This document shows positions 4,704-24,037 of a DNA stretch of 64,000 nucleotides, piece after piece (within the stretch, counting starts at the first letter, position 1; the number at the start of each line of letters is the position of its first letter). The notes beneath the pieces are model-generated. The model made no database searches, had not been told where the DNA came from, and saw nothing but the letters and a program-made list of their open reading frames with translations. Origin of the DNA: an uncultured Bacilli bacterium (lineage in GTDB: Bacteria > Bacillota_I > Bacilli_A > RF39 > UBA660); NCBI GenBank assembly GCA_934190785.1, contig CAKPTA010000001.1, positions 111,540-175,539 of the forward strand, written 5' to 3'. Made by a program: the position numbers and the translations under genes.

Positions 4704-4827
4704 CTGCAGTCATATTATAACATTGTAAATTAAAGTTGTAAAATATAAGTAAAATTTTGATAAAATATTGTATTTCAATAAATAAAAATATCTAACATAA
4801 ATGTGTTAGATATTTAAATACATCTAA

Positions 4828-4903
4828 TGGTGGACTGTTAGGGATTCGAACCCTAGACCCACTGATTAAGAGTCAGTTGCTCTACCAACTGAGCTAACAG
4901 TCC
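4828..4903 (-). tRNA. tRNA-Lys (anticodon CTT)
   Basis: The reverse complement GGACTGTTAGCTCAGTTGGTAGAGC...CTCTTAA...GGTTCGAATCCC...CCA folds as a cloverleaf. Anticodon loop is cTCTTaa. It is very similar to Bacillus tRNA-Lys. Confidence 0.85.
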
Positions 4904-4960
4904 AATAATGACTATTTAAGTATATCATATTTTTCTTAAATGTCAATTACTATTTTAAAA

Positions 4961-5620
4961 TTAAGTCATTCTTTTAAGATATTTTACTTTTATTTTTTCA
5001 TTTGTTCTTTTTAAAATACGAGATGTATATGACTGAGTATATCCAAATATATCAGCAATTTCATCTTGTTTGTATCTTCTATCTGAATCAAAGCCATAGT
5101 ATTTTTTAACAACCTCTTTTTCAAGTGGTGGAAGGGAATCTATAATTTCCCTAATTACAGTTTTTTCGACATCTGCTTCAACTTTATCTTCTATAAGTCC
5201 ATTTGAATCTTGCACCATTTCTTCAAGTGTAAGATCTGATATGTCTCTATCACGTGAAATAATGGGCTCATTTAAACTAGCAACTTGATCGTGCTTTTTA
5301 TTTTTTCTTAGATACATAAATATTTCATTTTGAATACAAGTTGAAACATATGTAGCAAATTTAATATTAATGTTTGGGTTAAAAGAATCTACTCCTTTTA
5401 TTAATCCTAATATTGAAACACTTACTAATTCTTCTAACATTTCGCCCTTTGATCCAGCTATTTTTTGAGCATAGGATATGGCTAATCTTAAATTATGTAG
5501 AATTAATTTCTCTCTAGCTTCTGCCTCTCCATTTTCATAATCATGAGCTAATTTCATATTTTCTTCTTGTGGTAAAACTTTATATTTTTTTAAATCATAA
5601 TTTAAATTGTAACTATACAT
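4961..5620 (-). CDS. sigma-70 family sporulation-type sigma factor (SigE/SigK-like)
   Basis: KLILHNLRL and FATYVSTCIQNEIFMYLRKNK match region 2 of SigE/SigK. A region-4 HTH is near the C-terminus. There is a short (~12 aa) N-terminal extension. Confidence 0.7.
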   Translation of the reverse strand: MYSYNLNYDLKKYKVLPQEENMKLAHDYENGEAEAREKLILHNLRLAISYAQKIAGSKGEMLEELVSVSILGLIKGVDSFNPNINIKFATYVSTCIQNEIFMYLRKNKKHDQVASLNEPIISRDRDISDLTLEEMVQDSNGLIEDKVEADVEKTVIREIIDSLPPLEKEVVKKYYGFDSDRRYKQDEIADIFGYTQSYTSRILKRTNEKIKVKYLKRMT

Positions 5621-13230: not shown

Positions 13231-13860
13231 ATGGATAGTAAAAGAGTTTTTATTGGAGTATACAAAGATACTAATCAAGAATCATTGTTTTACCAAAAAG
13301 ATAATGGCTTATTTCGTGATTTGATAAAAAGTAGATCTGTTTCTATTGATGAATTAGAAAGTAATTTAATTTCTTATGATAGTTTTTGTGATAATATTAT
13401 AGAACACAGCAGTAAGGCAATTTCTTATGATAGTTTTTATGCTAACATTATAGAACACAAAAGTAAATTTAAAAGAAATATGATTAAGCTATATAATTAT
13501 GATAGAATGCAGAAAGTATCGTTAAAAAGAGTGTTTATAGGGAATAGTTATGTAGTTGCTAAAATACTTAATAGAGATTTTTTTGGTTTTTCATCATGTA
13601 CAACAACTTATAGCAGTCAAAAATTAGGTGATAGAATATTATTATATTCTGAAGATTATGATCTAGAATATAGTGATTTTATTGATATAGAGAATAATGA
13701 ATATTATAAGAATTTATTTTGTCCAGAAAAAGGAGATATTTATATTTCGATAGATGATTTAAAACCGGCTTCATTAGAACTTAATATTCATGATACGGTT
13801 GTTGAAAAACAAAAGTTGTTAGAAAAATATAGAACGTATAAAAAAGGAGGTAACAAATGA
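13231..13860 (+). CDS. hypothetical protein inserted between rpsO and pnp; contains an internal tandem repeat
   Basis: 209 aa. The repeat unit ISYDSF(C/Y)(D/A)NIIEH(S/K)SK occurs twice. A second module (KRVFIG...) is also duplicated. Overlaps the pnp start by 4 nt. Confidence 0.4.
13369..13470 (+). repeat. direct tandem repeat, 2 x 51 bp (~85% identical), in-frame within the CDS
   Basis: Copy 1 at 13369-13419 and copy 2 at 13420-13470, read directly. Confidence 0.7.
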
Positions 13861-15995
13861 AAAGAGTATTTGAATTAGATTTTAGAGGAAGAAAAATTGT
13901 TGTAGAACATGGAGAACTTGCTAAACAAGCAGATGGAGCTGTTTTAGTTCGTTATGGTGATACAGTTATTTTAACTGCAGCTGTTGTTGCTAAAACTGCT
14001 AATTTATTATCTGATTTTTTTCCATTAACAGTTTTATATCAAGAAAAACTTTATTCTGTTGGTAAAATACCAGGTGGTTTTATAAAAAGAGAAGGACGTC
14101 CTACTGAAAATGCTACATTAGCAGCTAGAATGATTGATCGTCCTATGCGACCACTATTTAAGGATGGATTTAAAAATGAAGTACAAATAGTTAATACAGT
14201 TTTATCAGTAGATCAGGATAATTCACCAGAAATGACAGCAATGTTAGGTTCAAGCTTAGCAGTATCAATTAGTAAAATTCCATTTGATGGGCCTATTGCT
14301 GGTGTAAAAGTGGGAAGAGTTAATGGCGAATTTATTATAAATCCAACAAAAGAACAAATGGATAACTCTGATATTGATTTAACGGTAGCAGGAACTAAAG
14401 ACGCTATTAATATGGTAGAGGCAGGTGCAAAAGAAGTAAGTGAAGACGATATGCTTGAAGCTTTAATGTTTGGACATGAAGCTATTAAGGAACTTATTGC
14501 TTTTGAAGAAGAAATAATATCAGCAATTGGTGAAGAAGATATGGAATATGAAACACTAGAGATTACTGATGATTTCAAAAAAGAAATCGAAGTTCTTGCT
14601 GGTCCTACTTTAAATACAGCTATGCGTATTAAAGATAAGTTAGAAAAATATGCTGCTATTGATGCAGCAAAAGAAGATGTTGTTAAAATTTATGAAGAGA
14701 AGGGCGCATCTTTAAGTGAAGATGAGAAAAAAGAATTAATTACTAAGGTAAAATTAGTACTTGAAAATATTGAGTATGAAATATTTAGAAATATAGTTGT
14801 AAAAGAACATACAAGAGCTGATGGAAGAGAAATGGATGAAATTAGACCACTATCAACTGATATTGATCTATTACCTCGAACTCATGGTTCTGCTTTATTT
14901 ACAAGAGGACAAACTCAAGCTTTAGGTGTTGTTACGCTTGGAGCTTTAGGGGAACATCAAATTTTAGATGGACTTTCTATTGAAGACGAGAAAAGATTTA
15001 TGTTACATTACAATTTCCCTCAATTTTCAGTTGGAGAAACAGGACGTTATGGTGCACCTGGAAGAAGAGAAATTGGACACGGTGCTTTAGGAGAACGTGC
15101 ATTGCAACAGGTAATACCAAGTGAGGATGAATTCCCATATACAATTCGTGTTGTTTCCGAAATACTTGAATCCAATGGTTCATCAAGCCAAGCATCTATT
15201 TGTGCTGGTTGTATGGCTTTAATGGCAGCAGGTGTGCCAATAAAAGCTCCAGTAGCAGGTATTGCTATGGGATTAATTACACATGAATCTGATTATACAA
15301 TTTTAACTGATATTCAAGGTATGGAAGATCATCTTGGTGATATGGATTTCAAAGTAGCAGGAACTAGAGATGGAATTTGTGCTCTTCAGATGGATATTAA
15401 AATTAAAGGTATTACAAAACAAATACTAAAAGAAGCTTTAGATAAGGCCAAAAAAGCACGTATGCAAGTTTTAGATGTTATGGAAAAACAAATTGCTGCA
15501 CCTAGAAGCGAAGTTAGTAAATATGCTCCTAAGACAATGTCATTCTATATTAATCCAAATCGTATTAAAGAAGTAATTGGAAAAGGTGGAGAAATGATTA
15601 CTAAGATAATTCTAGAATCAAGCCACGTAAATACAGTAACTGATGTTAATGCTGTAAAAGTTGATATAGAAGAAGATGGTAGAGTAATAATTTATCATAG
15701 TGATAAAGATATTATTGATGAGACAGCACGTCGTATCAAAGATGTTGTAAGAGAAGTAGAAGATGGTGCTATTTACAAAGGAAAAGTAGTAAAAGTTGAA
15801 GATTTTGGATGTTTTGTTGAATTGTGGCCTGGATGTGAAGGACTTGTTCATGTTTCACATTTAGATAGTAAGCGTGTTGAAAAACCTAGTGATGTTGTAT
15901 CTGTTGGTGATGAAATCATTGTAAAAAGTTTAGGTTATGACAAACGTGGAAGACTTAATTTATCAAGAAAAGAAGCTTTGCAAGAAGAAAAATAA
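13857..15995 (+). CDS. pnp: polynucleotide phosphorylase
   Basis: 712 aa with two RNase PH domains, KH and S1. The [15 protein letters not shown] motif is present. Confidence 0.95.
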
Positions 15996-16020
15996 AAAGG
16001 TGACTAATTAGTCGCCTTTT
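15996..16020. terminator. bidirectional terminator shared by convergent pnp and the HIT gene
   Basis: aaaggtgactaattagtcgcctttt hairpin. The HIT-gene stop codon lies inside the stem. Confidence 0.5.
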
Positions 16021-16376
16021 ATTATGTCATAAATTTCAGATGGGTTTTTAATTTCCACATTATTTTCATAATGTGGAACTACATGTAAGTGAAAATGTTT
16101 TACTTCTTCAACATCACCATTATTCTGAGAAAAAGTAATACCTGTACATTTTAGCTTTTCTTCAAGTAATTTTTTAACTTTCAAACCTACTTTAAAAATA
16201 TGCATAACAGTATCACTATCAATATCCATACTGTCAACAAAATGATTCTTAGGGATTATTAAAGTATGACCATTACTAGCTGGATTAATATCTAAGAATG
16301 CTAAAACAGTTTCATCTTCATAAACTTTATAGCTTGGAATTTCTCCATTTATAATTTTACAAAAAATACAGTCCAT
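16008..16376 (-). CDS. HIT-family (histidine triad) hydrolase
   Basis: NGHTLIIPKNHF and HFHLHVVP histidine-triad motif. Confidence 0.8.
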   Translation of the reverse strand: MDCIFCKIINGEIPSYKVYEDETVLAFLDINPASNGHTLIIPKNHFVDSMDIDSDTVMHIFKVGLKVKKLLEEKLKCTGITFSQNNGDVEEVKHFHLHVVPHYENNVEIKNPSEIYDIIKGD

Positions 16377-16557
16377 AATATCATCTCCATATAAAATTAT
16401 ATCAAAAAGAAAAAAAGAGTAAACTCTTTTTGGTGAATATCTGCGAATATTCTATTTAATTATGAGTAAAAATGTACATTTTAAACAAAAAATTGACAAA
16501 AGAGGTAAATAACTATATATTATAAGTGTTGTAAACATTTAGAACGATGGTGATTTT

Positions 16558-19182
16558 ATGATTCAAGATTTTAAAAATAAAACAAAAGAAGAACGCCTTA
16601 TGCTATTATCAAACAGTGAATTTATAAAAAGTATTTTAGCGATGCCACCAGCTTCTCTTAATGCTTTTGGACTTTCCCTTAGTAATGATGAAATGCAAAA
16701 GTTTGTTCCATATGCATCTGATTTTACAAAAGTAGATAGAATTCGTTTTAATGCTTTTTTTAAAACATTTGGTTCAAATATTCAGAAACAATTTTTTGAT
16801 AATGAAGAATTTTTAACGTTTTACATGGAAGCAAAAAAAACACAGCGAGGATATCATCCTTTTATGTCACTTCCTGAGGATGTAAAATTATACGTTTTAG
16901 AGAAACATGAATATATTATGAGTCATATAAATAATCTTGAATATATACATAATTTAAATAAAGAAAATGAAAGATTATATCTTGATTCACTTGATACATA
17001 TATAAAAAATAATTGTAGTGATGAGCTTAAAAACATTCCTATCACTGAGCTTAGATATGTATATAGCTTGTACCATGATAAAGATTATTCTAAAGTTAAA
17101 GCTTGGTGTAAACGGGAATTTCAAATTGAAGATGAAGAATTATTTGAAAGCTTATTTAATTTAATTATTCATAATCATGCTAAACTTACTTATGCCCTAA
17201 CACTAAAAACAGAGTTAGAATGGTTATTATATTTAAAATTTGATATTTATATACCATCATTAGATGAAAAAAGTGAAAATCTAGGTATTAAACTGGATAA
17301 AGAATTATTAAAAAAAGTTAGAGTACATGATGTTAACCGTATATATAGAGAATTAGCTAATACTAATGAATTAAATGATTATGAAAAGCTTATTTTATCA
17401 CTTAATGCGTATAGTGTTTTGGGGCTTGATAATAGTTTAAAACTAGTCCGTGGTAAGTTTTCAAATATAACAGATCGTGCTCTTGATAGATCAGCAAGAT
17501 TAGATTTTACTGATAGTAGAAGAGAATATAGAATAAAACATCAAGATGAGTTTTACGGTTATCAATTATTTGATAAAGTAAAAAGGTGTTTTAAAGATGA
17601 AGAATATACATATCTAGAAAATATTTTTAAAATAAATCATAATGAAATAGATGAGTATATAAATGAAATATATTCCATGTGGAAGAAGAATGAAAAACAT
17701 GAAGAGTGGGATACCTTTTTAGCCCATATAATAAAAACAACAATTACTAGACGTGAGAAAAATTTAGAAAAAGAACACATTGAAAAATTTAAGAAAAATT
17801 ATCTAGCAAAAAGAACACATGATGTAACAATTAAAGATGTATTTATGTGTTTTCGTGATATTGATTTAAGTAATATTTCTTACAATGATAAGGGTAAACC
17901 TATAATTAATCCAGTTTTAGTTACATTTTTACTGGGAAATGAAAAAGTTGATAATGATTGTTTAATTAGACTTGTTTTAAATGGACTAGCTTTTGGACTT
18001 AATTATACGCTTGCAAATACAATTAATCATTTTAAAGCTTTAAATGATATAATTGAAAAATCTAAAGGTAAAATGAATATTAATTCTCTTTTAGATGTAA
18101 TTGATGCTAGTAAAGTATTACTTTATGAATTAGAGCCTGATGAGCAAGATATTTCTCTTGCTACAATAGCTAAAATTCAGTCTTCAAGGCAGCATTGCAA
18201 TGAACCTGTTGATGTAATTATAAGAAAAGTAAAAAAGCTTCATCATGAGAGAAAAAGTAAAGTAGCAGCTACAATTCCATTTGTTCGTGGAATAAGTGCT
18301 AATGGTATTTCTTATGGTATATTAGAGTATGATGATGAAAAAGTACTTACGGCTGGAATAGATACTGGAAGTTGTTTTAGAGTAGGCGCTAGAGGTGAAG
18401 ATTTTCTACGCTATTGTGCATTAGATAAAAATGGCGCTATATTATCCCTTACAACTAAAGAAGGTAATTATTACATTTGTCCACTTATTAGAAATGGGAA
18501 CAGTGTTTATGGAAATGGCATAGATCCAGAACCAAAAACAGAAAAAGAGACAGAGGAACTATTAACAACAATTAAAGAATGTTTCTCTAAAATGTGCCTT
18601 CGAAGTGATAAAAAAGAACCAATTGAAATAGGTGTTATCACTGATTTACATAATAAAAATTATTTTGAACATGAAACTTATGAAAAATTTAATTCTAAGG
18701 AAGCTTTTATGCTAGGAGAATACTGTTATACTGATTACTATAAATCAACAATTCAAAATTATATAATTTATAAAGAAAATAATGCTGAAACTAAATATTA
18801 CAATCCTAACATTGTTTATAGTGAGCCACGCCAAAAACCATATACATATATTTCATCAGTAGAGCAAGATAAAGAACGAATTAACCTTTTAATAAATTCA
18901 ATTGGTTACACAATATATAAAGAGGAATTAATTAAAGAAAAAAGTAGAAAAAAAGCTTTTAAAACATATAAACCATTTAATGTTGATGATTTTAAATCAA
19001 TTAATGGTGCTAAAGATTGGTTTGTAGGAATAAAAGACAACTTAACAGTTGAAAGTAGATGCTTACCATATGATAAAAGAGCAAAAATTGAAATGTATAA
19101 CGCTTTAGCTAAAATAGAAGAACAACTAAATTTTTCAGAAACTATGGAGGAAAATCTATCATGCGAGAAGAAAAAGGTATAA
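16558..19182 (+). CDS. large hypothetical protein (874 aa)
   Basis: Long uninterrupted ORF with TTGACA-17-TATATT promoter upstream. No recognised domain. Confidence 0.4.
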   Translation: MIQDFKNKTKEERLMLLSNSEFIKSILAMPPASLNAFGLSLSNDEMQKFVPYASDFTKVDRIRFNAFFKTFGSNIQKQFFDNEEFLTFYMEAKKTQRGYHPFMSLPEDVKLYVLEKHEYIMSHINNLEYIHNLNKENERLYLDSLDTYIKNNCSDELKNIPITELRYVYSLYHDKDYSKVKAWCKREFQIEDEELFESLFNLIIHNHAKLTYALTLKTELEWLLYLKFDIYIPSLDEKSENLGIKLDKELLKKVRVHDVNRIYRELANTNELNDYEKLILSLNAYSVLGLDNSLKLVRGKFSNITDRALDRSARLDFTDSRREYRIKHQDEFYGYQLFDKVKRCFKDEEYTYLENIFKINHNEIDEYINEIYSMWKKNEKHEEWDTFLAHIIKTTITRREKNLEKEHIEKFKKNYLAKRTHDVTIKDVFMCFRDIDLSNISYNDKGKPIINPVLVTFLLGNEKVDNDCLIRLVLNGLAFGLNYTLANTINHFKALNDIIEKSKGKMNINSLLDVIDASKVLLYELEPDEQDISLATIAKIQSSRQHCNEPVDVIIRKVKKLHHERKSKVAATIPFVRGISANGISYGILEYDDEKVLTAGIDTGSCFRVGARGEDFLRYCALDKNGAILSLTTKEGNYYICPLIRNGNSVYGNGIDPEPKTEKETEELLTTIKECFSKMCLRSDKKEPIEIGVITDLHNKNYFEHETYEKFNSKEAFMLGEYCYTDYYKSTIQNYIIYKENNAETKYYNPNIVYSEPRQKPYTYISSVEQDKERINLLINSIGYTIYKEELIKEKSRKKAFKTYKPFNVDDFKSINGAKDWFVGIKDNLTVESRCLPYDKRAKIEMYNALAKIEEQLNFSETMEENLSCEKKKV

Positions 19183-19373
19183 TAAAAGAATATATAGATG
19201 ATATTAATGGAATAATACTAGGTGAAGATAATATTGAATACTTTTTTTCAAAAGTAAATATGGACTCGGATATAACAGGTAGTGTTAATGAAAAAGTAAG
19301 ATTTATTGTAAAAAATATAAAAACAGAAAATGGATATATTATCCATAAAGCTATCGATATTACAGGGTTATAG
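19161..19373 (+). CDS. small protein with cold-shock-domain-like pattern
   Basis: 70 aa. KGIIKEY..NGIILGEDN.IEYFF...GSVNEKVRFIV...GYIIHKAIDI resembles the CspA layout. Overlaps the upstream gene by 22 nt. Confidence 0.3.
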   Translation: MREEKGIIKEYIDDINGIILGEDNIEYFFSKVNMDSDITGSVNEKVRFIVKNIKTENGYIIHKAIDITGL

Positions 19374-19423
19374 TTTTATTATATAAGAATTCTAAGTACA
19401 CCCACGCTCCACTTGACAAGTGG

Positions 19424-19454
19424 GGGGGGGGTGTATGCTAAAATACACTTTAGA
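19424..19454 (+). promoter_or_regulatory. putative sigma-A promoter (TTGACA ... TAAAAT) with a 19-nt spacer containing a G9 homopolymer
   Basis: -35 TTGACA at 19424-19429 lies inside the perfect palindrome ccacttg-a-caagtgg. -10 TAAAAT at 19449-19454. G run at 19433-19441. Confidence 0.4.
19433..19441. repeat. poly-G homopolymeric tract (9 G)
   Basis: Read directly. This is the only such G/C run in the window. Confidence 0.9.
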
Positions 19455-19472
19455 ATAGAGGTGTATTTTTTT

Positions 19473-21065
19473 ATGAAAAAGAAAGGTTTTACTTTAATAG
19501 AATTACTTGCCGTAATAGTTATTTTAGCTGTTGTTGCACTAATATCAATGCCACTAGTATTAAATACAATAGATAAGGCAAAGAAAGGTGCAGCTATAGA
19601 ATCAGCTAATGGTGTTATATCAGCAGCTGAGAATAAATACATGAGTAGTATGATAACAGGAGATAAAGATACAAGATTTGATTTTCCAAGTGATACCAAG
19701 TTATCAATCAAAGGAACAAGACCAACAAGTGGAACAGTTGTCGTTGATAAGAAAGGTAATATAAGTGCTACTTTAGAAATAAATGGATACTGCATAGAAA
19801 AGACGTTTCTTGAAACATCACCAAAAGTAATAGAAAAAAGTCCATGTACAATTAGTGATAGTGAGCTTTTTGAAGCAGAAAAATATAAAGATTCTGTTTT
19901 AAATGGAGCAGACCCTGTTATAAATAGTGACTTAGTAGCAGTAACAATAGAAAATGATGGAACAGTAAAAAAAGCCGATATCAAAAAAGAATGGTATAAC
20001 TATAAAAATAAAGTATGGGCCAATGCGATTATTCTAAAAGATAAAACAATAAACTATGAAGATAATGAGGTAATACCAGAAAGTAATATAGAATCATATT
20101 TTGTATGGATACCAAGATATAAATATAGAATCTTTAATGAAGGAAATTATACAAACTATATAGAAGGAAAACCAGAAAGTTCAAGCAAACCAGATACAAT
20201 AGAAATAGTATTTGAAAATAAAGATACAAGTGTATCAAATGGTTCAAAGGTAGGAGAATACTTAACACATCCAGCCTTTACAAGTTTTGAAAGTAATGGA
20301 TTTTGGATGGGAAAATTTGAAACAACTGGAAGTACAAGTAATATAACAGTAAAACCAAATAATACATCACTTCGAAATATAAATGTAAAATCAATGTTTG
20401 AGTTAGCTTACAATTATAATAGAAATCTAGATAGTCATATGCTAAAGAATACTGAGTGGGGAGCAGCTACATACTTATCATATTCAGTATATGGAATAAA
20501 TGATGAAGTAAATATAAATAATAATAGTAACTTTGTAACAGGATATAGTGCGGTTTCTGGAACAGATCAAAGTAGTTATCCTGGAACATATGGAACTGAT
20601 ACAAGTGTAACACTTGCATATAATACAGAAACAGGGTATAAGGCAAGTACAACTGGAAATATAAGTGGAGTATATGATATGAGTGGAGGAGCATGGGAAT
20701 ACATGGCTTCATATATGAAAGATACATATAAAGATAGCGGTTTTGATGCAGCCTCAATATCTTCATATAATTCAAAATACTTTGATATTTATCCAAGTGA
20801 TAGTGGTTGGACAAGTTATAATAAACGAATTTTAGGAGATGCGACAGGAGAGATAGGGCCATTCTATTATTACAAAGATAAAGATGGAAATAACAGAATA
20901 CATAACTCTTGGTTTGGGGACTACTCTTATTTCGTTGACGCTTCTTACCCTTGGTTCGTACGCGGAGGCCGTTACGCCAACGGTGTTCTTGCAGGTCAGT
21001 CGTTTTTTGATAGGTCTACTGGTGTTGCGAGCAGTTGGAATGGCTTCCGCCTTGCATTAATATAA
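19473..21065 (+). CDS. type IV prepilin-like N-terminus fused to a formylglycine-generating-enzyme (FGE/SUMF1) family domain
   Basis: MKKKG|FTLIELLAVIVILAVVALI is the prepilin cleavage/methylation motif (Gly-1, Phe+1, Glu+5). The C-terminal domain carries FGE hallmarks (...TEWGAATY..., GGAWEYM, RGGRYANG...SWNGFRLAL). I prefer ATG 19473 to the upstream track start, which reads through the G tract. Confidence 0.6.
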   Translation: MKKKGFTLIELLAVIVILAVVALISMPLVLNTIDKAKKGAAIESANGVISAAENKYMSSMITGDKDTRFDFPSDTKLSIKGTRPTSGTVVVDKKGNISATLEINGYCIEKTFLETSPKVIEKSPCTISDSELFEAEKYKDSVLNGADPVINSDLVAVTIENDGTVKKADIKKEWYNYKNKVWANAIILKDKTINYEDNEVIPESNIESYFVWIPRYKYRIFNEGNYTNYIEGKPESSSKPDTIEIVFENKDTSVSNGSKVGEYLTHPAFTSFESNGFWMGKFETTGSTSNITVKPNNTSLRNINVKSMFELAYNYNRNLDSHMLKNTEWGAATYLSYSVYGINDEVNINNNSNFVTGYSAVSGTDQSSYPGTYGTDTSVTLAYNTETGYKASTTGNISGVYDMSGGAWEYMASYMKDTYKDSGFDAASISSYNSKYFDIYPSDSGWTSYNKRILGDATGEIGPFYYYKDKDGNNRIHNSWFGDYSYFVDASYPWFVRGGRYANGVLAGQSFFDRSTGVASSWNGFRLALI

Positions 21066-21080
21066 AAATAATTATTTTTA

Positions 21081-21101
21081 AAGACAATTTTGTCTTTTTT
21101 T
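21081..21101 (+). terminator. rho-independent terminator after the pilin-FGE gene
   Basis: aagacaa-tt-ttgtctt followed by T7. Confidence 0.5.
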
Positions 21102-21125
21102 GTTATACTATTAGCAGTGATATTT

Positions 21126-22079
21126 ATGAATGAATTAGAATTAATAAATGATGTTGTTAGCAAGTATATATCCGATTGTAATATAGAAGATATGAACGAT
21201 TTTAGATTTTTAACGTCTTTAATTGATATTTTTGATAGTAATTATAAGGGAAATAAAGTTAGAGATTTTAAGAAACGTGTTTCTTTGAAACGTTGTCTTA
21301 AATATGCATATGATTTTTTTATGTCTATTAATTCAGACTATGCGGCTTACTTAGAAAAACGTTTAGATGAAGGTGCTTTTATCTTTGAAACTGGTAAAGA
21401 AAAGTATGACAATAATTTATCTATTTCTAGTATTATTGATGGTAAAGCAAAGATGATAGTATATCTTCAAAATACTATTAATGATGCTTATGCAATTACG
21501 CATGAGCTTATTCATGATATGACTATAGAAAGAGAAGGAGTAGATAATTCTGCTACAAGATCTGTATTTTGTGAAATGTTTTCCTTATTGGGAGAAGAAC
21601 TTTTAAGAGATTATTTTGAAAGGACTACTAGGCCAAGTGAGTATGAACTTGAGAGTAAATATAATTTATATGTAATCTCTTGGAAAAATAAAATTATTTT
21701 ATATGAGCTTCATTTAATTGAAACTTATCTTAATAATGGGTATATTCATGCTACTGATTTAGCTTATGGTGATGATGATCTTGTATGCGGTATTGCACTT
21801 GATGATATTTTAGATAATAAGGATTTAAGTTTTCCTTTTGAAGAAAGGTATGTAATAGGTTATTTATTTGCGTGTTATATGCTTGATAGAGTTGATAGTA
21901 ATAGTAAAAATATTAATGAATTTTTTGAACTTAATGATATTATTAATAAATTTAAATTTTTAAATTTGACAAATTATTTAGAACTTGATGTAGTGGATGC
22001 TAGAACATTTGATTTAACAGATGAATCTTATAAAAAGATAGAAAATGCTTTTGTTAAAAGGTTAAAGAAAGTTAGGTAA
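21126..22079 (+). CDS. HExxH...E putative gluzincin metallopeptidase, paralog 1
   Basis: HELIH, then a Glu about 20 aa downstream (FCEMFS). I prefer ATG 21126 because the track TTG start lies inside the terminator. Confidence 0.45.
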   Translation: MNELELINDVVSKYISDCNIEDMNDFRFLTSLIDIFDSNYKGNKVRDFKKRVSLKRCLKYAYDFFMSINSDYAAYLEKRLDEGAFIFETGKEKYDNNLSISSIIDGKAKMIVYLQNTINDAYAITHELIHDMTIEREGVDNSATRSVFCEMFSLLGEELLRDYFERTTRPSEYELESKYNLYVISWKNKIILYELHLIETYLNNGYIHATDLAYGDDDLVCGIALDDILDNKDLSFPFEERYVIGYLFACYMLDRVDSNSKNINEFFELNDIINKFKFLNLTNYLELDVVDARTFDLTDESYKKIENAFVKRLKKVR

Positions 22080-22107
22080 ATGATTGTAAAATAAAGTGGG
22101 GGTAATA

Positions 22108-23151
22108 ATGGTGACAGTAGAAGAGTATAAAAAATTAAATGATTATTTAAATGGCTGTTTTATTAAATTAGAAAGAAATGACTGGTTTTTATTAGATAAT
22201 ATAAGTTTTTTTGATAAACTTAGTAAAGCTTTTATTGAAACTGTTAATGAATATGATTTAGGCATGAATACTGAAGCTTGTAATATTAGTTTTAATGATA
22301 TTTACGTTTTAGCTCGTGAAATTCTTGAAGATATTTCACCATCATATTTGCCTATATTTGATACTTTAATAAAAAGCGGCGAGCTTGATTTTAGTTATGA
22401 GAATGAATATAAAACTTCTTGTGTTACATATGATCATTTAAATGATGTTTCTCTAATTAATATTAATTTAAGTTTTACACATCAAGATGTTGCTACTTTA
22501 ATTCATGAGTTTATGCATAAAATTAATTATGGCAATTCTTTTAATTGGTATATATTTACAGAATTTATCTCTATTTATTTTGAGGAATATGCGAAACGAT
22601 ATTTACTTAATAAAGGCATTTTTAAAGATAGTTTGAATTTAAATCTTAGAATATCTAATACATTAATATGTGCAAGTGATATTGTTAGTTATTCTCGTAT
22701 TATTTTTGCATATGAAAAAATGGGTAAAATTGATATGAATTCATATGAATTTTTAGATGAATATTTTACTCCTACAGATAAAGATGATTTTGAAGATGAA
22801 TGTAAAGTATTTTTACAAAAAATTCAAAAAATTGAGAATAGTTATAAAATGTCTATTTTGTATGAAAAAGATTTTAATGAAAATGAATTATATGATAAAA
22901 TTATTAGAAGTTTATCTAAGGGGTATCGTTATATTTTAGGAACTGCCGTAGCTTATTATGCATTAGAACATTGTAATAAAGAAGATATTGTATATTTATC
23001 TTGGCATATTAATGATGAAGAGTTTAGAAATATTTCTTTTTTTGAATGTTTAAATAAAATTGGAATAAGTAGTGATATTATAACGATTAATGATTGTACT
23101 GATGCGGTAAAAAAGGTACTTGAAAATAATTCACATAAAAAAGATAGGTGA
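22108..23151 (+). CDS. HExxH...E putative gluzincin metallopeptidase, paralog 2
   Basis: HEFMH ... FTEFIS. Same size and layout as paralog 1. Ends 5 nt before miaA. Confidence 0.45.
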   Translation: MVTVEEYKKLNDYLNGCFIKLERNDWFLLDNISFFDKLSKAFIETVNEYDLGMNTEACNISFNDIYVLAREILEDISPSYLPIFDTLIKSGELDFSYENEYKTSCVTYDHLNDVSLININLSFTHQDVATLIHEFMHKINYGNSFNWYIFTEFISIYFEEYAKRYLLNKGIFKDSLNLNLRISNTLICASDIVSYSRIIFAYEKMGKIDMNSYEFLDEYFTPTDKDDFEDECKVFLQKIQKIENSYKMSILYEKDFNENELYDKIIRSLSKGYRYILGTAVAYYALEHCNKEDIVYLSWHINDEEFRNISFFECLNKIGISSDIITINDCTDAVKKVLENNSHKKDR

Positions 23152-23155
23152 TTAG

Positions 23156-24037
23156 ATGGTTATTGTAATTACAGGTCCAACTTGTGTTGGTAAAACAAAA
23201 ATGAGTGTAGAGCTTGCTCATATATTAGATGGAGAAGTTGTGAATGCAGATTCAACACAAGTATATAAAGAGATGGATATAGCAACTGCTAAAGTAAGTG
23301 AAGAGGAAAAAGAAAATATACCTCATCATTTGTTTGATATTAAAGATATTAGTGATGACTATAGTATTTATGATTATCAACAAGATGCAAGACTTATAAT
23401 TAATGATATATTAAAACGTGGTAAAATTCCAATTTTAGTTGGAGGAACAGGACTATATATAAAGGCAGCTCTTTACAATTATCAATTTATTGAGGAAGAA
23501 AAAAAGTATGATTATAGCACTTATTCTAATAGTGAGCTTTATCAAGAATTACTTAAAGTTGACCCAAATACTGATATTCACATGAATAATAGAAAAAGAG
23601 TAGAACGTGCACTTAATTATTATAAAAACAATAAAGTACCTATGAGTTCTAAAGAACGTAGTAGTGAACTTATGTATGATGATGTGTTATTTATTGGTCT
23701 TACTACTGATAGAAGTATTTTATATGATAAGATTAATGCTAGAGTAGATAATATGGTAGATAATGGTTTACTTGATGAAGCATTTAAAATTTATTCATCT
23801 GGTATTAGGAGTAAAGCTGTTTTAACACCTATTGGATATAAGGAATTGTTTCCATATTTTGAACATAAAAAAGAGCTTTATGAATGCCTAGATGATATAA
23901 AGAAAAACAGTAGACATTATGCGAAGAGGCAATACACTTTTTTTAATAATCAACTTCCTATCAAGTGGTTTTATGTTGACTATAACTATTTTAATAAAAC
24001 AATTAATGATGTTTTAAATTATATAAAAAATAGCTAA
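23156..24037 (+). CDS. miaA: tRNA dimethylallyltransferase
   Basis: ITGPTCVGKTKMSVELA P-loop and DSTQVYKEMDIATAK. Confidence 0.9.
   Translation: MVIVITGPTCVGKTKMSVELAHILDGEVVNADSTQVYKEMDIATAKVSEEEKENIPHHLFDIKDISDDYSIYDYQQDARLIINDILKRGKIPILVGGTGLYIKAALYNYQFIEEEKKYDYSTYSNSELYQELLKVDPNTDIHMNNRKRVERALNYYKNNKVPMSSKERSSELMYDDVLFIGLTTDRSILYDKINARVDNMVDNGLLDEAFKIYSSGIRSKAVLTPIGYKELFPYFEHKKELYECLDDIKKNSRHYAKRQYTFFNNQLPIKWFYVDYNYFNKTINDVLNYIKNS

Follow-up and report, generated by a model that had tools for sequence, protein, structure and literature searches.

Gcn5-related N-acetyltransferases (GNAT enzymes) share a fold in which the α1-α2 loop lines the acceptor site. In Pat/PatZ (YfiQ), a protein of about 880 residues, the GNAT domain is located at the C-terminus, behind a large N-terminal domain. 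Proteins of the cold-shock domain (CSD) family carry two short motifs, RNP1 and RNP2, with the consensus sequences KGFGFI and VFVHF. The present study concerns two overlapping genes in a 64,000-nt stretch (the window; G+C content about 27%, GC skew strongly positive) of contig CAKPTA010000001.1 from an uncultured Bacilli bacterium. The first gene codes for a protein of 874 residues, here called the large protein, and the second for a 70-residue small protein. We lean modestly toward the interpretation that they constitute a conserved two-gene operon of uncultured low-GC gut Bacilli and that their products are two subunits of one cytoplasmic acyltransferase-like enzyme, in which a divergent GNAT-fold domain would be joined by a partner that resembles the cold-shock proteins.

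Neither protein matched any domain in Pfam, NCBIfam, PADLOC or PHROGs. An earlier inspection of the window (the first-pass annotation) had found no recognisable domain in the large protein; this description holds for its sequence, but not for its structure, since the predicted model shows a GNAT fold. The AlphaFold2 model, calculated from a 44-sequence alignment with a mean predicted local distance difference test score (pLDDT) of 88.3 and a predicted template modelling score of 0.76, is entirely helical from residue 1 to 565 and of the α/β type from 570 to 870. The latter region agrees with the GNAT fold, which is recognised by a mixed β-sheet with a splay between β4 and β5 and by the helices α1 to α4. 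When the model was compared with the PDB by Foldseek, only GNATs were recovered (E 0.02-0.2, TM to the target approximately 0.5-0.6). The corresponding search of BFVD returned GNATs together with one uncharacterised phage protein of 656 residues, which aligned over most of the length (E 9e-7). None of the GNAT sequence models (Pfam Acetyltransf_*, FemAB and others) matched the window protein or its 44 + 54 relatives, even at E<=1, and nothing meaningful was obtained when the PDB sequences were searched with a profile of the 44-sequence alignment or of the C-terminal domain. On the strength of the model, it is very likely that the C-terminal domain of the large protein has a GNAT fold that is too divergent for any sequence model.

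The large protein differs from the members of the GNAT superfamily, including the FemA/FemX and MbtK-type enzymes, in that the Q/RxxGxG/A loop of motif A, the loop for coenzyme A (CoA), was absent between β4 and α3 when this segment of the model was inspected, and in that an invariant cysteine, C606, is located in the α1-α2 loop. The residues that follow β4 (652-661) read GNGIDPEPKT; only N653 and P657 are invariant there. Two further differences are the additional C-terminal subdomain of about 130 residues and the helical N-terminal region of about 565 residues, which has invariant polar motifs of its own. The helical domain spanning residues 201 to 565 has many invariant Arg, Asn and Asp residues. 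The invariant and near-invariant columns of the 44-sequence alignment form its motifs DxRREYR (319-325), R399-E400, FLLGNxKxDNDCLxR (457-471) and N490, and no structural match to this domain was present among the listed fold-search hits. We also considered an R-x5-H sequence at 556-562 as a sign of a HEPN protein and rejected it, as the arginine is replaced by lysine in the relative P0003 and the histidine is not kept in distant relatives.

Mean column conservation is 0.5-0.6 beyond residue 200, with peaks at 450-650 and 800-850. The residues R325, R399, G460, R471, N490, G600, C606, G647, N648 and D726 are invariant in the 44 sequences, as are the two residues mentioned above that follow β4 and, in the C-terminal subdomain, R758 and D820-W821; the D839-x-R841-A842 sequence of the same subdomain is near-invariant. 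When distant relatives of 700-1250 residues were added, only G600, C606 and G647 remained as invariant columns. C606, in the modelled α1-α2 loop, is a candidate catalytic residue.

One could envision instead that the GNAT-fold domain is dead, that the large protein serves as a helical scaffold, and that the GNAT-like and CSD-like modules merely bind a ligand or a partner; ornithine decarboxylase antizyme, for example, binds its partner with a GNAT-like fold. Such a pseudoenzyme would be in keeping with the lack of a canonical CoA loop in the β4-α3 segment of the model, with the failure of Pfam and PDB searches to reveal a GNAT of similar sequence, and with the helical nature of approximately 565 of the 874 residues. 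However, G600, C606 and G647, with N648 in the 44 sequences, are strictly invariant, and R645, W821 and D839 near-invariant, over very divergent relatives, a pattern that is more typical of an active site. We consider the pseudoenzyme explanation unlikely, while the chances that the large protein, as modelled, is an active transferase appear to us evenly balanced.

The total length of Pat/PatZ and the C-terminal placement of its GNAT domain are similar to those of the large protein. The N-terminal part of Pat/PatZ, however, resembles the α/β NDP-forming acyl-CoA synthetases and is detected by Pfam, whereas that of the large protein is all-helical without a Pfam match, and no homology between the two proteins was detected.

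The large protein had been called an orphan, a view that our searches do not bear out. When 1.84 billion representatives were searched exhaustively with a profile, 261 of them belonged to the family at E<=1e-3, of which 65 reached E<=1e-30; most of the 65 are full-length proteins of 790-885 residues and the remainder are fragments. A word-indexed homologue search, even with the 44-sequence profile, yielded only 3 clusters, as it was saturated by low-complexity candidates. The only source name that we found for the family is 'hypothetical protein [Bacilli bacterium]'. More remote members form a distant shell of 700-1250-residue proteins, in which the similarity is confined to approximately the last 430 residues. 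In a few of these distant relatives the N-terminal part carries DUF4116 repeats; short helices follow one another in a similar manner in the large protein of the window, but Pfam did not detect DUF4116 in it, and our literature search returned nothing on the function of DUF4116. A Pfam search of the 98 relatives (44 + 54) produced nothing beyond DUF4116 in a few distant members and one isolated Intein_splicing match (E 7.8e-6, in one of the 44 members), which we judged spurious because the alignment contains no insertion of intein size in any member. The ratio of nonsynonymous to synonymous substitution rates (dN/dS) of the large gene is 0.17 relative to its orthologue at L002 (related loci are referred to by L numbers). 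The fold itself is known, but nothing in the libraries and literature that we searched describes the family, its architecture, the absent CoA motif, the invariant cysteine or the CSD-like partner.

The first-pass annotation had placed the two open reading frames (ORFs) correctly, with a 22-nt overlap, and had described the small ORF as a tightly coupled partner. Our comparisons bear out both points, and the two ORFs are in different frames. Among 19 lineages, which were grouped by eye, 13 have a small homologue of 62-76 residues that starts between -38 and +1 nt from the stop codon of the large gene, and the small partner travels with the large gene down to approximately 28-33% identity of the large protein. 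In the window a GGAGG ribosome-binding site precedes the small gene (Table 1), and GGAGG or GAGG precedes the small start codon in other partner-bearing lineages too. Close homologues of the small protein (74-100% identity) are found on many contigs, and the dN/dS of 0.22-0.37 in moderately diverged pairs indicates purifying selection. The overlap contains the sequence AAG AAA AAG, and we considered whether a programmed -1 frameshift might fuse the two proteins; the variation of the junction among the lineages, from -38 to +1 nt, led us to reject this idea. We are confident that the large and small genes are a genuine two-gene module. The promoter assigned to the large ORF was also recovered: the TTGACA-17-TATATT sequence is the top promoter-like match, at 11/12 positions, in the 5.3-kb region from 15900 to 21200, and it is a consensus match only, in an AT-rich region that shows 52 promoter-like matches where 36 are expected. 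No terminator-like site was found in the same interval, and no paralogue was found within the window.

The first-pass annotation had likened the small protein to CspA, and this remains the best available description of it. With a profile of 13 partner sequences, the top four matches in the PDB were 2kcm (E 0.018), 9t0z (0.022), 2k5n (0.024) and 3cam (0.58). The first of these is a "cold shock domain family protein" and 2k5n is a "putative cold-shock protein", whereas 9t0z is a hibernation factor that was matched in its CSD-like C-terminal region. When the partner profile was aligned by hhalign with CspA/CspB-type sequences, P was about 1e-3 over 43-61 columns; in the alignment of 61 columns, which were in register, P was 7e-4 and the probability 26%. 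The controls, which were the small β-barrels S1, IF1, Hfq, SH3, KOW and Sso7d together with ubiquitin, gave P>=0.055 over a few columns. The small protein is similar in length to CspA/CspB and to the atypical 2kcm and 2k5n proteins, and its hydrophobic and glycine pattern has their spacing over all five strands. It differs from them in genetic context, as CSD proteins are encoded by stand-alone stress genes, whereas the small gene always lies downstream of the large gene and overlaps it. The aromatic residues and the histidine of RNP1 and RNP2 are kept in part, some relatives having DFGYII at the RNP1 position and YLFS at RNP2. The profile comparisons suggest that the small protein is probably a CSD-like barrel rather than an established member of the CSD family.

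Several observations weigh against the interpretation that the pair forms an enzyme with a CSD-like subunit. The Pfam CSD model (PF00313) matches none of the 13 partner sequences, even at E<=10, and in this respect the CspA assignment falls short. The small protein of the window has INGIIL at RNP1 and YFFSK at RNP2, and lacks the RNP1 aromatic residues and the RNP2 histidine. Structure prediction of both proteins had been proposed as a check; it was informative for the large protein, but the model of the small protein, from a shallow alignment of 9 close sequences, reached a pLDDT of only 47, and because of this failure the CSD assignment rests on borderline profile statistics. On the side of the large protein, motif A is unrecognisable by eye and the NGIDPEP loop is acidic, which could mean that another donor is used or that the domain is a pseudoenzyme. 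Finally, the large gene is not followed by a partner in three clades that account for 6 of the 19 lineages, and a search of the large protein for partner-specific residues found none. The large protein can evidently exist without an adjacent partner; the partner is either not indispensable or encoded elsewhere in these clades.

The partner-less clades also bear on the possibility that the pair is a toxin-antitoxin system similar to TacT or AtaT, in which the large protein would acetylate aminoacyl-tRNA and the small protein would neutralise it. A GNAT fold encoded next to a small, translationally coupled and acidic partner is what one would expect of such a system. Known GNAT toxins, however, are approximately 160-180 residues in length, with the ribbon-helix-helix (RHH)/DUF1778 antitoxin gene upstream, whereas the large protein has 874 residues and the small gene is downstream and looks CSD-like. 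Furthermore, the partner has been lost in the three clades while the large gene stayed intact, which is hard to reconcile with an antitoxin role. We regard this explanation as extremely unlikely.

The genomic surroundings do not support another reading of the first-pass annotation, according to which the large and small genes have the layout of a defence or conflict system and lie, together with the pilin and HExxH genes downstream, in an island of about 6.6 kb that lacks housekeeping signatures. In the window the pair follows rpsO, an unannotated ORF, pnp and a minus-strand HIT-family gene. At L012, where the large protein is 44% identical, the order uvrC-rpsO-x-pnp-HIT(minus strand)-large-small is kept and is followed by suf genes, with no pilin. 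In another species the pair follows polC. The upstream neighbours in other lineages are genes for a response regulator, an AAA kinase, UDG, dnaJ, a tadA-like deaminase, a polysaccharide deacetylase, an xerD-like protein and ddl, and those downstream are genes for GDPD, an ABC ATPase, ogt, frr, a deoB-like protein and PFOR. The question whether the pair travels together is answered by the 13 of 19 lineages described above; as to whether it lies near defence islands elsewhere, these neighbours speak against it. Across the lineages the small partner is the only recurring neighbour. In six strain contigs of the window's own species, the pair occupies one position between the HIT gene and a strain-variable spot, and the DNA 3′ of the small ORF consists of the pilin gene, the pilin gene with a diversity-generating retroelement (DGR) cassette, or a DNA methylase gene. 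The pair behaves independently of the pilin/HExxH genes.

If the pair were an anti-phage system, a large effector or sensor with its small coupled partner might trigger abortive infection. The coupled large and small layout would fit, as would the strain-variable spot directly downstream and the phage proteins that share the fold or the core of the large protein, namely the BFVD protein and a Microcystis phage protein (see below). In addition, the distant relative at L039 adjoins a resolvase/Mob_Pre gene, and a 249-residue minus-strand ORF downstream is a candidate AbiEii-like gene. On the other hand, no PADLOC-DB 2.0 family matched either protein at E<=1, all strain contigs examined carry the pair at one and the same syntenic position, housekeeping genes surround it in other lineages and no defence gene recurs among them, selection is purifying without a sign of rapid turnover, and the mobile-element relative at L039 is not accompanied by the small partner. 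Our literature search returned nothing on defence systems that combine CSD and GNAT domains. Because the housekeeping flanks differ in every lineage and the position is fixed within the species, the defence-island reading is not supported, and a defence role is very unlikely; the pair looks like a stable chromosomal gene pair.

The Microcystis phage protein is the 697-residue hypothetical ORF68L of MaMV-DC (L042, NC_029002.1, 2507-4600), which shares the GNAT-core motifs of the distant shell and is 32% identical to it over 134 residues (E 1e-6). Together with the family member at L039, which lies by a mobile gene, its occurrence shows that the superfamily is not confined to chromosomes. Like the distant shell, both of these relatives lack the small partner. 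The large protein of the window itself had no match in phage or plasmid collections by tblastn, and nothing was found in a scan of viral contigs or in two scans of GTDB genomes.

The gene that adjoins the pair on the downstream side codes for a prepilin-type protein with a weak FGE-sulfatase match (pilin-FGE). A role of the pair as an accessory factor of this surface system, for example in modifying or chaperoning the variable pilin-like protein, would agree with the location of N_methyl pilin-like homologues, which adjoin the pair in the window, lie two genes downstream of it in L002-L005, and directly precede it in the distant lineage L029. However, no pilin is present in the fetched flanks of most lineages (L012, L016, L018, L021, L023, L024, L030), the pilin gene has its own promoter-like site, and the pair is unchanged at L006, where a methylase replaces the pilin. 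Such a role is very unlikely indeed, and the pair is unrelated in function to the adjoining DGR-targeted pilin. At L006 (3473-6213, compared with the window from 19374 onward), DNA methylase and helix-turn-helix genes take the place of both the pilin-FGE gene and the HExxH genes, and a poly-G tract (G8) is kept at the junction.

In the window this tract is a G10 run at 19422-19431, within 19413-19444, in a genome of 27% G+C, and the ATG of the pilin-FGE gene is at 19476. By eye, the poly-G lies between a TTGACA sequence (19413-19418) and the -10-like hexamers TATGCT and TAAAAT. Metagenome copies of the same locus have tracts of G8, G10 and G11, and in a related species the pilin gene is preceded by TTGACA and TACAAT with G9 between the two. 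The tract is a candidate phase-variable promoter, in which slipped-strand changes would alter the length of the spacer.

Evidence for the DGR comes from the strain contig L007, in which genes for a MutS_I-like protein, bAvd and a reverse transcriptase follow the pilin-FGE gene. A template repeat of 168 nt is 91% identical to the 3′ end of the gene (4746-4913 and 5072-5239), and every difference between template and gene is at a template adenine, with AAC changed to GGC, TAC or GAC. The 3′ end of the pilin-FGE gene in the window (20897-21072) aligns to the L007 template, and most of the differences fall on the same template adenines. The 64 kb of the window contain the repeat only once. FGE-sulfatase and CLec domains are known DGR targets (PMC5758913). 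Judging from the repeats, the pilin-FGE protein is a DGR target.

Two adjacent unannotated ORFs with HExxH motifs follow, at 21090-22079 (329 residues, THELIHD) and 22096-23151 (351 residues, IHEFMHK). Neither matched Pfam, NCBIfam, PADLOC or PHROGs, and the first had no match in the PDB either. The two are barely alike, and only around HExxH (E 0.19), and they are present only in the window's species group. The ORF of 293 residues beyond them (23156-24037) is read as a candidate miaA. On the other side of the pair, the unannotated ORF between rpsO and pnp (13231-13860, 209 residues) contains a 51-nt tandem duplication at 13360-13461 with 84% identity, and an unrelated-looking ORF of 171 residues fills the same slot at L012. 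Locus L015 (VOFC01000530.1) is colinear with the window and its large protein is 69% identical; nearly every gene there, including uvrC, pnp, the large gene, the pilin gene and miaA, is split into several ORFs, which looks like the result of an error-prone assembly rather than pseudogenisation.

Table 1. Coordinates of the large and small genes and of their predicted features in the window
Feature	Position	Strand	Description
Promoter-like TTGACA-17-TATATT	16493-16521	+	37 nt before the large ATG; consensus match
Large gene	16558-19182	+	874 aa; helical domain and predicted divergent GNAT-fold domain
N-terminal short-helix run, aa 1-200	16558-17157	+	Poorly conserved, mean column conservation 0.21-0.35
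Conserved all-helical domain, aa 201-565	17158-18252	+	Polar/charged motifs
GNAT-fold core (predicted), aa 570-740	18265-18777	+	β1-α1-α2-β2-β3-β4-α3-β5-α4-β6
Cys606 codon	18373-18375	+	α1-α2 loop of the GNAT-fold domain; invariant
C-terminal α/β subdomain, aa 741-874	18778-19179	+	Three-stranded meander and helices
GGAGG ribosome-binding site of the small gene	19146-19150	+	Inside the large coding sequence, near its 3′ end; small ATG 10 nt further on
Small gene	19161-19373	+	70 aa; cold-shock-domain-like partner

If the pair does form a two-subunit enzyme, one could envision the following mechanism. Termination-reinitiation coupling would provide roughly equimolar amounts of the two subunits, which would assemble into a complex. 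The variable N-terminal helices or repeats would dock and select the target, and the GNAT-fold domain would transfer an acyl group, which might be acetyl or another acyl group from CoA or an aminoacyl group from tRNA. In view of the absent CoA loop and of the FemA/FemX-like proteins among the matches, the donor may be non-canonical, for example aminoacyl-tRNA as in the Fem enzymes. The CSD-like subunit might hold a single-stranded RNA or an RNA-associated substrate, or it might act as a specificity adaptor. That the substrate is linked to RNA seems to us rather doubtful. More specific, and quite improbable, is the proposal of an RNA-directed acyl- or aminoacyl-transferase, in which a GNAT-fold domain that depends on a cysteine and lacks the CoA loop would receive single-stranded RNA, or a substrate bound to RNA (tRNA, for example), from the CSD-like subunit. 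If it were true, uncultured gut Bacilli would possess a new enzyme family, represented by the pair and with relatives in phages.

With the defence island removed as a false lead, what had appeared to be an orphan protein becomes a member of a family of at least 261 clusters that is absent from the domain databases and has a testable assignment to the GNAT fold, a candidate catalytic residue in C606 and a small partner. If the large protein is active, poorly studied Bacilli of the human gut would have a branch of the GNATs in which the layout of the active site is unusual and one subunit is cold-shock-like.

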